Part shown: piece after piece, positions 18,158 to 54,978 of the stretch
How the letters are laid out: each line of letters starts with the position of its first letter
How positions within the stretch are numbered: the first letter of the stretch is position 1
From: a virus
DNA length: 64,000 bases
IMG/VR virus record: IMGVR_UViG_3300042565_001021
Coordinates: 32,001 to 96,000 of that record
Strand: one strand, 5' to 3'
Program-made: the position numbers and the translations under genes
The notes under the pieces: generated by a model
The model's input: the letters and a program-made list of their open reading frames with translations, nothing else
Database searches by the model: none
Told to the model about the DNA's origin: nothing

Positions 18158-18670
18158 TTATTTTAAAAACTCTTCGATAGGGAGATCAAAAAATAGAGAA
18201 TTTATGCGGTGTACGCCTATGAGGTAAAGGACATAAGACGCAGTTGAACTACCGCGACCAACTCCCCACACTATTCCATTTTTACGAAAGGTATCAACCA
18301 GATATTTCATAAAACGCAGAATATCAAATGCGTCACGGTCTTGGAACATTAGCAGCTCTTTACCGACCCGTTGTAGTTCTTCGTCGGTCTTACATTCACG
18401 CAATACCCAATTGGCTATGTCTAGTGTTTTGTATTCGTCCGGCATCAACCAATTGCCTTGGTTTTGTTTGTCAAAGTCTTCGACTGAAATCTCTAGTGTC
18501 TTGTATTTTTCTAACTTCGGGAGATCGACAAACAGAGCCTTGATGCTGTTATTAAAGTCCTCTGGGTCGTCGACCCTGATATTGCTCAAGTCAAGCAAAG
18601 GATCTGCGTATAACATATCGCATATCTCTTCTGAGCTTGCGTGAGGAGTTCCGTATTTGTCTATTTGCAC
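18158..18670 (-). CDS. DNA polymerase III alpha (DnaE) fragment as a stand-alone gene
   Basis: RVGKEL...GVGRGSSTASYVLYLIGVHRINS matches the DnaE GPGRGS...LGIT motif; only 170 aa. Confidence 0.8.
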   Translation of the reverse strand: MQIDKYGTPHASSEEICDMLYADPLLDLSNIRVDDPEDFNNSIKALFVDLPKLEKYKTLEISVEDFDKQNQGNWLMPDEYKTLDIANWVLRECKTDEELQRVGKELLMFQDRDAFDILRFMKYLVDTFRKNGIVWGVGRGSSTASYVLYLIGVHRINSLFFDLPIEEFLK

Positions 18671-18924
18671 TTGCTTTCCTCTATCTTCATAATTGCTACC
18701 ATGTTAGCGATTATTTCGTCGTCGATTGCTCTCTGAATTTCAACAGCAATTCGCGCACTCATTTCGGCCTCAAACTTTTCCTGCTCTGTTCGGTTGTCAA
18801 CTGGAGCCTGTAAAGCTTCCCAAGTTGCCTTCTTGCTTACTCGTTTCTTTTTAGGTTTAGGACATTGCGGCATTTCCACAATGTAATCTGTCAGCCATTT
18901 GGCCATTAGTTTTCGATCAGTCAT
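18661..18924 (-). CDS. Small protein with a major-capsid-like helix
   Basis: Probable start MTDRK at 18924; C-terminal FEAEMSARIAVEIQRAIDDEIIANM. Confidence 0.55.
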   Translation of the reverse strand: MTDRKLMAKWLTDYIVEMPQCPKPKKKRVSKKATWEALQAPVDNRTEQEKFEAEMSARIAVEIQRAIDDEIIANMVAIMKIEESKCK

Positions 18925-19096
18925 CTTTTTTCTTAGCTGTGTAACAGCGGTCAAAATAGGCTTCGTCTGCCCGTTCTGCTGCTGCCCGTATCTTCTCACG
19001 GATCAATCTACCAAGTTCACCTTCGTTATAACGCCGTCGCAACTCTTCTGCGCTAGTGTTTAATGTTTTCCACATCTCTTCTTGCTCAGGTGTCAT
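18917..19096 (-). CDS. Small protein (59 aa, not in ORF track), paralogue of the neighbour
   Basis: MTPEQEEMWKTL...; same N-terminus as 19086-19268. Confidence 0.6.
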   Translation of the reverse strand: MTPEQEEMWKTLNTSAEELRRRYNEGELGRLIREKIRAAAERADEAYFDRCYTAKKKDD

Positions 19097-32600: not shown

Positions 32601-32865
32601 ACTACCAGCTCAACTTTCATTCTTTCACTCCGAAATGCTTACGCAATGCTTCAAGGTAGTTATCGGTGCCCATAACTTTATTACCGTTGTCAATGGCCGA
32701 ATAAACGTTAGCGCATTCAATCACAATAAGCTCAGCGAACTGTTCGACCGCTGCGTCAAACTCGATAACGTCGTCGTCGTTAAGTTGATGACAGAACGCC
32801 CTGTACCGGTCATACAGCTCGGCTAAGTCAGTTTTTACTGCTAGGTCAATCACTCGTTGGTTCAT
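29647..32865 (-). other. Run of small hypothetical early genes (29647-30060, 30060-~30404, 30395-31252, 31322-31702, 31704-31973, 31924-32280, 32282-32620, 32617-32865)
   Basis: Tightly packed minus-strand ORFs with overlapping start/stop codons; early promoter near 31280-31312. Confidence 0.65.
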
Positions 32866-33455
32866 TCTTCTACTCCTTGTTCAATCCAGTGACAGTTAAA
32901 CAGCCAGCGCACTTCATCAACCTTAGTCTGAGTCGAGCACGACTTTGCGATTGCACCCTTTACTAACTCGTAGGTGTTTTCCTTCTGATCAAACATCTTG
33001 TACAGGAAACGCTGATACTTTTCTTCCTGCTTCTGTACAAACTCAACCGCGTAGATCTTACGGTCAACATCGAGCTTTGCTTTTGCAGCAGCAATACGCA
33101 GATCAATTAAGGTCAGCGAAGTATCACGAACACCGTTCCAGAACTTGTTTTCAAATTCCTCAAAACGTGCCAAGTCCTTAGCGTCCAGGAAAGTACGCAC
33201 GTCGTCGGCCTGCTCGTTAGCGATGATCTCGATCACGTTCTTTTCGCGGCCGATCATGTCCTTGGCCTTGTGCTTGATCATATAGTCTTCGCTTTTACAC
33301 TTTACGCGATGGCCAGAATCCCATGCAACAACAAATCCCTCTTCGCCTATTAGGCCACGCACAAAGGAAATGAACTCCTGTGGATCTGCCACAGAGTTAT
33401 GCGATTTAACTGTAGGAATGTTAAACTCGCGAATCTTATCTTGAAGTATTGTCAT
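32862..33455 (-). CDS. RNA ligase 1 (T4 Rnl1-like), C-terminal part
   Basis: Motif IV EGFVV and motif V RVKCKSEDY, followed by a helical C-domain. Confidence 0.85.
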   Translation of the reverse strand: MTILQDKIREFNIPTVKSHNSVADPQEFISFVRGLIGEEGFVVAWDSGHRVKCKSEDYMIKHKAKDMIGREKNVIEIIANEQADDVRTFLDAKDLARFEEFENKFWNGVRDTSLTLIDLRIAAAKAKLDVDRKIYAVEFVQKQEEKYQRFLYKMFDQKENTYELVKGAIAKSCSTQTKVDEVRWLFNCHWIEQGVEE

Positions 33456-33464
33456 AGTGTTACT

Positions 33465-33493
33465 ATTATACTACCAAAAAGAATAAATGTCAA
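33465..33493 (-). promoter_or_regulatory. Consensus sigma70 promoter for the ligase C-terminal half
   Basis: TTGACA(33488-33493)-N17-TATAAT(33465-33470), 9 nt before ATG. Confidence 0.85.
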
Positions 33494-33507
33494 GAAATAT
33501 TTTATAG

Positions 33508-33584
33508 GATAAATAATAGTGCGGGCCGCGATACTTGTAATATCCGCCCGCTCTAGACGAACCAGGAGGCTCATATGTCCAGCA
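33508..33584. ncRNA. Conserved two-hairpin element, copy 3
   Basis: GCGGGC/GCCCGC stem, CGC bulge, GATA/TATC stem; CTAGAC/GTCCAG stem enclosing AGGAGG. Confidence 0.7.
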
Positions 33585-34312
33585 ACGATATTTATCAGCT
33601 GTATTACACATACCAACTAATTGATCCACGATCAAACTTACCATTTTACATTGGCTTCGCAAAAGATCCGCTGCGACCATATGATCATTTAGCGCAGTGT
33701 AAGAATTGGTTAGCAGGTAAGAAAGTTCCTCATCCAAACTATATCAAAATGGCCAAAATAAGAGACATTCTTAGTGAGGGTTACGAGTTCAAATTTGAAA
33801 TTATTTACAAAAGTTACGATCCAAATCAAGCATACGACAAAGAAACTGAGTTAATAACAAAGTATGGAAGACAAGACTTAAAGACAGGATTCTTATCTAA
33901 TATGAATGCTGGAGGCCGCGGCTGTCTAAATCCAAGTGACGAAGTAAGAAAGAAAATAAGTGACGGAAACTGCGGCACATTAGTTGAACGATGGGGCAAG
34001 GAACGAGCAGAGAAACAACTGGCGTTTCTTCGCAAACAACCCAAAGAAGTGATGGCAGAGCGCGGAATGAGAGGCGCTAAACACATCATTGACAACGGTT
34101 GGTCCAAAGAAACATTATCTAAAAGAAGTAAGTCAAGATTGCTAAACACGGTTAAACGCATCCAAAACCATTATCACCAGCCATACACCGAAGAGTTACG
34201 CATACAAGCAAGAAAAGACAAGGTTGCCTTTGTTGATAAGACAGCCTTGTCTAATTATGTCACAGAGGAAGATATTCGCCAGTTATCATATGACGGCAAG
34301 CCAACAGAGTAA
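33575..34312 (+). CDS. GIY-YIG endonuclease inserted antisense in the RNA ligase gene
   Basis: YYTYQLIDP...PFYIG...R...ETELI...LSNMNAGG. Confidence 0.82.
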   Translation: MSSNDIYQLYYTYQLIDPRSNLPFYIGFAKDPLRPYDHLAQCKNWLAGKKVPHPNYIKMAKIRDILSEGYEFKFEIIYKSYDPNQAYDKETELITKYGRQDLKTGFLSNMNAGGRGCLNPSDEVRKKISDGNCGTLVERWGKERAEKQLAFLRKQPKEVMAERGMRGAKHIIDNGWSKETLSKRSKSRLLNTVKRIQNHYHQPYTEELRIQARKDKVAFVDKTALSNYVTEEDIRQLSYDGKPTE

Positions 34313-34847
34313 GCATGGGCTTATCGTAGTGAATCACAATCCGGTTATCAGGCGCTGTGTATTCAAATACCGGAGTGATTCCGTTTTCAATACACCAAGT
34401 CGAAAACGCCAGATACTCTGGATGAGCAGCAATAAACGGTTCCGCTTGAAGCGCAACATCAGTTAGTCCCATCTTCGTCCCAAAGCGAACCTTACCTTCA
34501 ACCATAAATGGTGACAGAAAAGAACCGTCAAGCTTGGTATAAACAGTATGCGGCTCAGAGAAATCAACATTCGCTAACTGCGTTTCTTCTTTCTCCATCA
34601 AGTTGAAAAATTTATGAAGAGGGCGACGAAGAATCTCACCAGTAGAAGAGCGGAAGATCATGCCGCGCAGTTCGCGCAGGATAGCGTGAGCTTCGTTTTC
34701 AACAGGAGGAAAGGTATCCGCCATCTGTACCACGTAGTTGATGACTGTGTAATCACCGTCCTTTACCGCGACAATGAACTCAGGCTTATCCGCAATCAGC
34801 GGCAATACCTGCGAAATGTTTGTGATCAACGGAAATTCATACTTCAT
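34260..34847 (-). CDS. RNA ligase 1 (T4 Rnl1-like), N-terminal part
   Basis: RELRG, HKFFN, motif I TKLDGS, PVFEY, NRIVIHY; ends GEYLPL*. Confidence 0.88.
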   Translation of the reverse strand: MKYEFPLITNISQVLPLIADKPEFIVAVKDGDYTVINYVVQMADTFPPVENEAHAILRELRGMIFRSSTGEILRRPLHKFFNLMEKEETQLANVDFSEPHTVYTKLDGSFLSPFMVEGKVRFGTKMGLTDVALQAEPFIAAHPEYLAFSTWCIENGITPVFEYTAPDNRIVIHYDKPMLTLLACRHMITGEYLPL

Positions 34848-35449: not shown

Positions 35450-35866
35450 TTAGCTCGCCTTACAGCCAAGTGCCTTCAATGCGTTGACGAATTCTCTGCG
35501 GTTAGCCTTGTTCATCACAGGAAGTTTCTCAACGTGTAACGAGGTCGCTCCGGTGACCCACCGGCAACGATCGCAGGCGTCTTTTGCGTCCTTCAGACCG
35601 TAGCCCGTGTATTGACGCACAGTTTTAATCACTTCAACATACATTGGCACATTTGCGTCAATCAGTCGCACATCGCCGAGATGCGTCCCGGTCATCATAG
35701 TAAAGAAAACCGCGCCCTTGAAATCCTGACCGACAGTGGTGGCAATCGTGCCCCACATTTCCATGCCGGCTTCGGGCCCCCAGAGCTCAGTAATTGTCCG
35801 CATGAAGTCTGTTCCGGACACAATCAGATCTTCTTGCTGCTCAGATGTTAGTGTATTGTAGTCCAA
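35450..35866 (-). CDS. Protein with a ribosomal protein bL12 (L7/L12) C-terminal-like domain
   Basis: VEVIKTVRQYTGYGLKDAKDACD...NALKALG resembles bL12 [21 protein letters not shown]. Confidence 0.7.
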   Translation of the reverse strand: MDYNTLTSEQQEDLIVSGTDFMRTITELWGPEAGMEMWGTIATTVGQDFKGAVFFTMMTGTHLGDVRLIDANVPMYVEVIKTVRQYTGYGLKDAKDACDRCRWVTGATSLHVEKLPVMNKANRREFVNALKALGCKAS

Positions 35867-36158
35867 TGTATCACTCCAGAATGCTATTTAATGCGACTAT
35901 TATAGCATCATTTGTAACCAAAGTCAACCGAATATATTTGCCGGTACGGAAACACCCTAACAGTGGTGCCGAGCTTTAACGCTAAAAATGTACCTAATGC
36001 TTCATCTTCGCAGTATAGGTCAATATTGGTTCCGGTGGAGCGAACCTCCCATCCTGCTCCTCCAATGGCAATATTTCTATTAGATGGCAACCAGTATCGT
36101 TGCTCGGAGATGTTGTCGTTACACCAGCTAACTACATTCTGAACCTTGTTACCTATTA

Positions 36159-36473
36159 TTACGCCCATTTTAGTTTCAATAGCGTCATTACCTCTTCGGA
36201 AACGTCGTACCACACACCTTTCACTTGCCGAACAATGAAGTAATCTTTATCTTCTACAAATGTTGCTCGTATCCATGTTAGCACTTTAGCATCGGCGGTA
36301 ATTGAATACATAGTCACACCGTCGACTACTGCCGATTCTAATACTGAATACATTTTTAATACCCCATACATCGGTTGAACTCCGACAATCTCGGCCGCAA
36401 TTAGATTAGGTACTATTCTTCGTATAAACGGAATCAGTACTTTTTGAAATTCTGTATGGTCTATCATAACCAT
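36159..36473 (-). CDS. Gol-peptide-like major capsid fragment fused to an LKW domain
   Basis: VLIPFIRRIVPNLIAAEIVGVQPMYG. Confidence 0.75.
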   Translation of the reverse strand: MVMIDHTEFQKVLIPFIRRIVPNLIAAEIVGVQPMYGVLKMYSVLESAVVDGVTMYSITADAKVLTWIRATFVEDKDYFIVRQVKGVWYDVSEEVMTLLKLKWA

Positions 36474-36778
36474 TTTAATCTGAACATGAGCAGGTCTGCC
36501 TCATTGCGAAGAAAGATTCGGCAGTTTTTCTCACTGTGAGATATTCTCCAACGGTGCCTGCTGTGGTTACCGTCTGTCCCAAAGGCTTCTTTACACCAGG
36601 CTATTGCGTCGTGCCATTGCCTTAAAGGTATGTCAATTGCCCACTCGCCGTGGTAAGCTTTTCTTATCCAAATAGCATCAACAAGATACATCGAATCCAT
36701 CCCGTGGAGTACTTCGACGGTCCAGGTCCCTATAAGTTTTCGTGGACTGGCCTTAATCTGTGTCGTTGTTATTTCCAT
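36464..36778 (-). CDS. Second major capsid fragment fused to an LKW domain
   Basis: MEITTTQIKASPRKLIGTWTVEVLHGMD; probable start 36778. Confidence 0.65.
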   Translation of the reverse strand: MEITTTQIKASPRKLIGTWTVEVLHGMDSMYLVDAIWIRKAYHGEWAIDIPLRQWHDAIAWCKEAFGTDGNHSRHRWRISHSEKNCRIFLRNEADLLMFRLKWL

Positions 36779-38150
36779 TTTACTTCCATCGTAGTGTAAA
36801 GTATGACGCGTCGGTTTCGTTTTCAAAAGCAAAGATCGAGTGCAGATAGAAGCCACGCAGGTTTTTTATCCTTGACTTAACTTTTCCGGTCTTGTGTTTT
36901 TCTACCCAGCGGACTAAGCTGCGATGTCGTAATGATCCTTCTGAGACCGGATCTAAGTTTGTGCGGTGTTCGATGGTAGCCAGGTGCCATCCGTTTCGAA
37001 GCGACTTGCGCAGCGATGCCATTTTATTCTGCCTTTCTTTCCCTGATCAAGAATTCAAACAGAGTTCCAATGAAAGCTTCTACTGTAGCCGGACCTGTTA
37101 CTTTTACGTGTGAATAGTCGAGGTTGTGACGCCTGAGAACGTGAATGATATAACTTTCAAACGAGATCCAGTGTCGTACCCAATCTTCCATGTCTTTAAA
37201 TGTATCTGTTCCGTCAAAGTCAATGTAGTATCGATCTTCAATACATCGTCCCGTCACCTTTATCTTTAACGGTGAGCAGTATTCAACTAGCGGTTGAATA
37301 ATAGAACTTACAGTATCATCCATTATGTTTCCATTTCAATGTAAAGAGCAATGCGTCTTGCTCGTTGCCAAATATGTATTCGTAAATGATGTCGTTAGTT
37401 ACGCTAACGTCGCTTACGTCAACTCCGTCTATAGTAATCAGATCAAGTTTAGAATCGTCAATGAATCTGCTCATTAAGTTAAGTTGTTCGTATGTTGGGT
37501 CTGCTATTAAAACCGTTTTCATTTCCATTTAAGCGAGATCCACGTGTAGGTCTCTTCCTCCATTTCGACCCAATATAGAATAGCCCCTGGACTAATAAAT
37601 ACCGGAATGCCGTATTCATTGATTAGCAGGTCTGTAAAGTCTCGAGAATTCAACGTGCCAAATTTGTGAGAAACCTTCGGAACAATCTCATTCATCAGTT
37701 TAGGAAATTGTCGTAGATCAACTTTCATAACCACTTCAGAGCAAATAGTGTTGCGTCTTTATCGTTTTCAAAAGTAAACTGTAGGTTCCCAAACATGCTG
37801 TACAGTTCCCACTTGAATGGGTTGTCTTCGTCTCGGGCATCTCTATGAAGCCAGCCGCCTTGACCAACGTTTTCTAGACACCATTGGATCATTTCTTCCT
37901 GTTTATGGTAATACTCTTTGTCAAGGTTAACGCTTTTCATCTTAACTCCACTTCAACGAAAAGAAAGAGGCATCGTCGGCGTATTCAAACAGCACAGATA
38001 ACCCAAATACTACACTTGGTTGGAACTCTACTTCGCCCCTTGAATTTTTCTTACACCACTTAACCATCTCGGTTGTCTCGTCGAGGTACGGATTAGTAAG
38101 GTGTGGCAGTCGAACCACGGAAGAATTTGCGTACAATCGCCCCATGCCCA

Positions 38151-38913
38151 TTATACGCCCACCCTATTAACGATTCCGTAGATGTTAGCTAACATGAAGT
38201 AAGAGTTAACTATTAGCACCGAACGAAGCGATTCAGACGCTTCGGACTTTACGATGAGCCATATAGATGCGCCGCAGCCGACGCAGAAGAAGCAGTAACC
38301 TATCAACTGTATCTCAACCTGCGCAGTAGCCACTAACGCGGCGCCGACAATGTTACCGATCAGCGCCAACGCATCCATTAGCTTTTTCACTCTTTGCCTT
38401 CCCTTGCTACAAACAGAACACAGCCAAAGTTCCAGCGTGTTAGTATCTTGTGTTCTTTGTCGGAGCCATCGACGATGACCTTCGAAATGTACCTGTCGTC
38501 TGACGACGCGGAGCTAGGTCGCTGCTTGCCCGAGATCAGCGTGTGTTTGCAGTAATTGACATTGCCGGCATCATATGGAAAGCCACTGCCGTCGCCGTCA
38601 CCCCAGAACTTACAACGAGAGCATTTCATGTTTCTTGCCTTCCTTTAAATTTTAAGAAAAGTGCTGTTAAAAGAGGATCGTCTGACGGAAGATGAATCGT
38701 TATATACCGAGACCCAGTTGACTCTTGTACAAAGTCTCTTACGTCTTTATGAAACAATTTTACCAGCGTCTTTTCGTTACAGACCGCGAATACAAAATCT
38801 GCGCCCTGGGACGGATCGTCTAGTGCTGCCATTCTAATCCTTATGTGAGAAAGGTACTCGCTCAATGAGCAGTTTTCCCATGTACGTAGATTTATCTTAC
38901 GCTTCCGCGACAT
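38151..38913 (-). other. Three small genes: membrane protein 38151-38390, Cys-rich protein 38387-38629, hypothetical 38626-38913
   Basis: Coupled ORFs; CxxC...C...C in 38387-38629. Confidence 0.6.
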
Positions 38914-39355: not shown

Positions 39356-39399
39356 ACTAACACTATACACTCTTTCGAGGAGTGTGTCAACCAGTATTT

Positions 39400-54559: not shown

Positions 54560-54978
54560 CGCGCCGCTGCCTTTACAAGTTCTATACTTAGTGGTTCTAC
54601 GCTTACTATTTGATCGGGAGTTACCCAGCCTTTCTTCTTTAGCCATTTGCCTTCGTTGCTTGCTTGTGACAACGGATCTGAATCATCTACTTCCCACGTA
54701 TTTATATCGTCGTTAAACGATACGATAGAGACAATGCCCGAGCCCATCTTCTTAGCTAATTCCCATTCCCACTTTGCTGCCCAGCGTGTTGCGTCCTTCT
54801 TGGATGTCATAGCAAAGATCTCGCCAATGTTGCCATACTGGCCGCCTGCTGCTTTAACAAAATTAGTAGGGTTAGCACCAGTAATCCCTTTAGCTTGGAT
54901 TTTTGAAACTGTTACAGTTCTAGTAACGTGATACAAAGTTGCCCCGGTTGATTCAGTTATAAACTCTTTAGCTTTCAT
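54553..54978 (-). CDS. Putative internal virion protein, ADP-ribosyltransferase-like fold
   Basis: MKAKEFITE; LYHVT...IQAKGI...IFA...VTPDQI. Confidence 0.55.
   Translation of the reverse strand: MKAKEFITESTGATLYHVTRTVTVSKIQAKGITGANPTNFVKAAGGQYGNIGEIFAMTSKKDATRWAAKWEWELAKKMGSGIVSIVSFNDDINTWEVDDSDPLSQASNEGKWLKKKGWVTPDQIVSVEPLSIELVKAAARW

Follow-up and report, generated by a model that had tools for sequence, protein, structure and literature searches.

Why should a phage encode a separate copy of part of its own major capsid protein? This question is raised by a small gene of an uncultured giant T4-like lake phage. The window analysed here is a 64,000 nt stretch, bases 32001–96000 of a 155 kb viral contig (IMG/VR record IMGVR_UViG_3300042565_001021) that CheckV rates as 44% complete, which makes the phage genome roughly 350 kb. 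In the original prediction, a 104 aa protein in an early-gene region was described as having, at its N-terminus, a peptide resembling the Gol peptide of T4 gp23, fused to a small domain. It was proposed that this sensed epitope is expressed outside the capsid to titrate or block capsid-sensing defences such as Lit and CapRel, or to engage EF-Tu. A 4 kb stretch including the gene recurs in lake and freshwater metagenomes of about 20 studies. A megablast search of 4 kb against sequenced phages returned no match.

Homology of the 104 aa protein to the capsid protein

The features of the gene, in window coordinates, are as follows.

36159–36473, minus strand: CDS of the 104 aa protein (P0001); the likely true start is the second ATG, at 36467.
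36363–36452, minus strand: codons for residues 8–37, capsid block 1, the homologue of the T4 Gol region, with the core pattern K-V-L-I-P-x-I-R-R-x-x-P-x-x-I-A-x-E-I-V-G-V-Q-P-M.
36162–36356, minus strand: codons for residues 40–104, a predicted compact domain ending in LLKLKWA.

The open reading frame is real and the observation behind the original prediction is confirmed. The protein is 104 aa from the first ATG and 102 aa from the second, the latter being the start used in the public gene call. This second ATG overlaps the stop codon of the upstream gene as ATGA, which is the usual sign of translational coupling. The peptide noted originally corresponds to residues 12–37. Residues 8–37 match the Gp23 major capsid family (Pfam PF07068, HK97 fold) at 32.5 bits, above the curated cut-off of 24.4 (E 8.3e-8), and also match phrog_138, major head protein. 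Against the T4 gp23 record itself, residues 7–35 align to gp23 89–117 with 14 of 29 residues identical (48%, E 2e-7), confirming the Gol sequence given in the original prediction. The similarity had been named beforehand as a point on which the prediction could fail, and it is significant.

The Gol peptide (T4 gp23 93–122) is part of the Lit/EF-Tu phage-exclusion system of the e14 prophage. It is a 29-residue segment with a 20-residue core in which 13 positions matter; in isolation it suffices to bind EF-Tu domains II–III and to license cleavage by Lit, it inhibits the EF-Tu GTPase, and it is the most conserved part of gp23 (PMC3014915). Lit cleaves EF-Tu at Gly59-Ile60. In T4 the segment exists only within the 521 aa capsid protein and acts as an accidental trigger, whereas here it is a separate gene product on an unrelated domain, conserved in its own right. 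A phmmer search of solved structures found the motif only in T4 capsids, with no separate Gol-peptide chain of 20 residues or more.

P0001 is not itself a capsid protein, since only profile positions 3–32 of the 376 in PF07068 are matched and the predicted folded part is not an HK97 fold, which has an N-arm, E-loop, P and A domains over about 390–520 aa. Annotation of such proteins as capsid proteins is therefore misleading.

The capsid gene lies elsewhere

The match in P0001 is the only Gp23 match in the 155 kb contig. In three complete related genomes (374, 360 and 462 kb) an intact capsid gene of 392–407 aa lies more than 100 kb from the small motif gene. The capsid protein of the genome G001 is encoded at L016:1432–2610. 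This rejects the reading of P0001 as a capsid pseudogene or as an exon of a split capsid gene.

A profile search of 1.84 billion representative proteins gave 366 hits at E<=1e-3. At least 60 of these are small proteins of about 100 aa, representatives clustered at 50% identity, with the motif near the N-terminus and an L(K/R)W-type C-terminus, so that the family has at least 60 sequence clusters. In these 60 proteins the 25-residue core K-[VI]-[LI]-[IL]-P-x-I-R-[RK]-x-x-P-x-x-I-A-x-[DE]-I-V-G-V-Q-P-M is as conserved as in capsid proteins, indicating strong purifying selection. The following E-loop strand (T-G-P-x-G-x-I-x-x-L-R) is kept in capsid proteins but only partly in the small proteins. 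Among sequenced phages the motif is found in 2005 records but at only 2009 places, and a second copy is therefore very rare there. A tblastn search with the C-terminal domain against 50,697 phage records gave no match. In three genomes, the motif of the small protein does not track the variant of its own capsid protein more closely than it does the capsid proteins of other phages, although the sample is only three.

Predicted structure and the LKW family

AlphaFold2, with a 55-sequence alignment, folds residues 40–104 with a pLDDT of about 95 as a beta-beta-alpha-beta-beta-alpha domain (strands 42–50 and 53–60, helix 62–71, strands 78–83 and 86–92, helix 93–103). Residues 1–38 are left at a pLDDT of about 50 with no secondary structure, and a relative gave the same picture. 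The motif is therefore predicted to be a flexible terminal peptide on a compact domain. No model in Pfam, PHROGs, NCBIfam or PADLOC covers this domain, and searches of PADLOC, NCBIfam and PHROGs for known defence or anti-defence families gave no hit to the protein beyond 'major head protein'. Structural comparisons gave no clear fold match, with a best E of 0.23 in Foldseek against PDB, a best Z of 4.8 in VIA (T4 UvsW N-domain 4.5, eIF1/SUI1 4.2), and only unnamed viral clusters in the ESM Atlas.

The domain is a divergent member of a family, undescribed and defined here, of small proteins ending in F.F..E.DA..F.L(K/R)W, referred to as 'F.LKW' or LKW. The C-terminal core of this family has a W-helix, two strands, and a helix ending in L-(K/R)-W. 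Residues 64–104 align end to end with positions 8–48 of the family profile (E 0.008 over 941 ORFs), and the homologue in the genome G001 (L004:5995–6321) is detected by the same profile at E<=0.001. LKW genes of 60–100 aa form tandem arrays of dozens of members joined by ATGA-type overlaps, in which the starts read M-G-M, M-V-M or M-A-M. There are at least 19 members in this contig and 37 in G001, most of them in one block of about 10 kb. P0001 homologues in the loci L004 (154–166 kb of G001), L005 and L010 lie inside such arrays, as does P0001 itself (35908–38151). The family is absent from Pfam and PHROGs.

The order of the two modules can be reversed. In L011:5707–6153, L013:5698–6219 and L015:5737–6216, and in the proteins P0069, P0084 and P0126, an LKW-like domain comes first and is followed by the motif with a longer stretch of capsid sequence; in the three L loci the motif and the E-loop strand lie at the C-terminus. 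PHROGs holds a 128-position family with this layout (phrog_12830) annotated 'major head protein', which is probably a mis-annotation. Peptide and domain thus behave as independent modules.

Other capsid segments in the array

The neighbours of P0001 change how it is read.

35908–36168, minus strand: downstream overlapping small ORF, also LKW-like (LKW profile E 2e-4).
36464–36778, minus strand: adjacent upstream gene (P0153, 104 aa; the ORF is open back to 36856), with N-terminal capsid block 2 followed by an LKW domain.
36686–36766, minus strand: codons for capsid block 2 in this gene (T-Q-I-K-A-S-P-R-K-L-I-G-T-W-T-V-E...H-G-M-D).
36780–38151, minus strand: run of further small genes, mostly joined by overlapping stop and start codons; five end in F.L(K/R)W (36780–37022, 37316–37528, 37519–37734, 37725–37940 and 37942–38151), while the ORF at 37024–37323 lies in the run but lacks that ending.
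39362–39390, minus strand: sigma-70-like promoter match (TTGACA, 17 nt, TATAGT) heading the run of minus-strand genes that ends with P0001.

Block 2 of the adjacent gene aligns by blastp to the same site in three capsid proteins (E 0.003–0.02), while six paralogues used as controls gave no hit. Its 76% identical homologue, P0154, matches Pfam Gp23 at 27.4 bits (cut-off 24.4) over profile positions 135–176 and aligns to T4 gp23 254–286 (E 3e-6). A third array member lies outside the window, at 102935–103261 of the contig on the minus strand (L054:3236–3562; window coordinate 70935–71261). This LKW-type protein ends with a shortened copy of the capsid V-G-Y-K-G...Y-A-P-Y-I-P-L block, block 3, in which the loop between the two halves is deleted, and it aligns to T4 gp23 413–456 (E 0.001). 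Within the C-terminal subfamily of P0001 itself, some members (P0117 and P0133) carry block 2 instead of block 1, and P0014 carries block 2 followed by half of block 1, with two Gp23 stretches in Pfam. An AlphaFold2 model of P0014 did not pair the two blocks, the N-terminal 50 residues being of low confidence with no hairpin, which is uninformative.

A systematic comparison of all LKW heads and tails with all large ORFs of this contig and of G001 found only capsid blocks 1 and 3 to be significant, and only a few LKW members carry capsid blocks. The common denominator is therefore the display of conserved capsid protein segments, rather than the EF-Tu-binding peptide alone. A weak candidate for a fourth capsid-like piece is a 112 aa ORF at 18661–18999 on the minus strand, which has no LKW end. 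Residues 50–103 resemble block 2 plus the following long helix, at E 6e-5 to 2e-4 against three capsid proteins in a tiny database but only E 0.031 against T4 gp23. In addition, some LKW or P0001-type domains (L010:3388–3795, L004:7683–8120 and the protein P0057) carry an N-terminal head of the form Y-Q...(S/G)-R-(Q/G)-T-G-K-S. This aligns with the Q-motif and Walker A of the G001 large terminase (residues 57–105) and may be a graft from a second hallmark protein, but support is weak (E 0.025–0.17, with no Pfam terminase hit).

Promoters and transcripts

The sigma-70-like promoter at 39390–39362 has 11 of 12 matches and no TATAAATA late-promoter motif is nearby. These are consensus matches only, and promoter-like sites were no more frequent than in shuffled sequence, so the placing of P0001 in an early-gene region is inference only. 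Two metatranscriptome runs from one study hold contigs over neighbouring genes but none over 36159–36473, which is no evidence either way as to expression, and DNA carry-over is not excluded in these data. The contigs of both runs end at 35872, just upstream of the start codon of a gene at 35450–35866 on the minus strand. This gene, 300 bp downstream of P0001, has its own sigma-70-like promoter match with 11 of 12 matches (35927–35899). It encodes a 138 aa protein, of which residues 71–100 match the ribosomal L7/L12 C-terminal domain (Pfam PF00542, 28.1 bits, cut-off 25.9; TIGR00855, E 1.8e-4), the stalk element that contacts EF-Tu and EF-G.

Interpretation

The analysis establishes a two-module accessory protein, encoded far from any capsid gene and inside a tandem array of LKW paralogues, in which a conserved copy of about 30 residues of the most conserved segment of T4-type major capsid proteins, predicted to be flexible and exposed, is tethered to a small, confidently predicted domain. 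This segment sits at the N-arm/E-loop base and is the Gol peptide of T4 gp23. What the protein does is inferred, including its expression and timing and any binding to EF-Tu, Lit or another capsid sensor. The interpretation in the original prediction, that of an immune decoy, is only partly supported. The location of the segment on a stand-alone small protein, its presentation as a terminal peptide, its conservation and the separate capsid gene are all in agreement with it, but the presence of blocks 2 and 3 favours mimicry of the capsid protein in general over an EF-Tu-specific role.

The preferred reading, which is tentative, is that the peptide acts in trans as a linear mimic of the capsid protein and occupies the site of whatever partner reads this segment. 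Most likely this would be a host factor that uses the segment as a signature of infection, such as a Lit-like, EF-Tu-dependent sensor or another motif-reading capsid sensor. Made from a host-type promoter before the capsid protein accumulates, it would block or titrate that reader, and sister proteins carrying blocks 2 and 3 would do the same for other conserved capsid segments. The peptide being disordered alone and found on either side of the domain is as expected of an independent linear binding module. The gene is accessory, lies among fast-diversifying small genes behind a sigma-70-like promoter match, and several capsid signatures are covered. Capsid proteins are sensed by many defences, being the commonest triggers of bacterial immunity, and Lit and CapRel sense them through short motifs (bioRxiv 10.64898/2026.01.04.697583). 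The main weakness is that a plain copy of a trigger peptide should activate, not block, sensors such as Lit, and an antagonist mechanism must therefore be assumed. The proposed logic is that of anti-defence proteins that occupy a sensor's trigger site, such as DSAD1 against DSR2 (PMC11087589), in which a small phage protein competes with a structural protein trigger. However, DSAD1 is not described as a copy of the tail-tube trigger, whereas here the competitor would be a literal copy of the trigger's conserved peptide.

Literature searches for capsid decoys or mimics in phages found nothing relevant, and no description was found of phage proteins that display fragments of their own capsid protein. 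If P0001 is a decoy, this would be a new counter-defence principle; if it binds the shell, it would be a new kind of assembly control or inter-phage weapon. Why the Gol segment, the most conserved part of T4-type capsid proteins in phages of very different hosts, binds EF-Tu has been an open question since 2000, and a natural, stand-alone, selectable version of the peptide gives a direct handle on it. A more speculative extension, considered unlikely but not excluded, is that the LKW arrays of giant T4-like phages are a self-epitope display system. A common small scaffold would carry copies of the most conserved peptides of the phage's own hallmark proteins (capsid blocks 1, 2 and 3, and possibly the terminase Q-motif/Walker A) which, made early, would blind or jam host pattern-recognition defences that read them. 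P0001 would be the member covering the Gol/EF-Tu/Lit-type signature.

Capsid binding is less likely but remains a live rival. The peptides copy capsid strands that normally make contacts within or between subunits, and the small proteins may dock on the phage's own capsid protein, as an assembly brake or chaperone, or on that of a co-infecting T4-like rival, as a dominant-negative poison. All three grafted blocks are the most conserved capsid segments, and conservation equal to that of capsid proteins is what docking into a capsid protein environment would impose, so that this reading explains the conservation equally well. Blocks 1 and 2 flank the E-loop/insertion region in the sequence (T4 89–117 and 254–286) and, given the HK97 fold, should be neighbouring strands; P0014 carries block 2 and half of block 1 in one chain. 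Against this, the gene is accessory, was not found in cultured T4-like phages, and lies far from the head-gene module among small genes behind a host-type promoter match rather than a late one. The failure of AlphaFold2 to pair the blocks of P0014 is weak evidence in the same direction.

It is doubtful that P0001 is purely an EF-Tu effector, modulating or recruiting EF-Tu for phage translation independently of any defence system. The identity to the T4 Gol region, the neighbouring gene with an L7/L12 match, and the conservation of the motif in phages of very different hosts, as expected for a universally conserved partner, support this, and Gol binding to EF-Tu is proposed to be general to T4-type phages (PMC3014915). 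However, it does not explain blocks 2 and 3, which lie outside the Gol region and outside the first quarter of gp23, and EF-Tu is so abundant that titration by a small accessory protein is hard.

A packaging tag, by which the LKW protein would co-assemble with the shell and be carried in the virion, is very unlikely. The peptide is terminal and predicted to be flexible, and like the capsid-targeting sequence on T4 internal proteins it would confer a capsid-related property on an otherwise unrelated small protein. The T4 sequence is different, however; its partner is the scaffold, it is cleaved by the prohead protease and it is expressed late. The late-promoter motif TATAAATA is present at 54699, whereas the LKW array does not sit behind one.

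Non-functional debris, a leftover 5' piece of the capsid gene or an exon of a split capsid gene fused by chance to a neighbouring small ORF, is contradicted by the intact ORFs of the same two-module plan in at least 60 clusters and by the intact capsid genes elsewhere in complete genomes, even though the genome is rich in homing endonucleases, which can scatter gene fragments. At 32862–34847 of the window, two minus-strand ORFs (34260–34847 and 32862–33455) look, from translation only, like the halves of one gene separated by a plus-strand ORF (33575–34312) with a GIY-YIG-like N-terminus.
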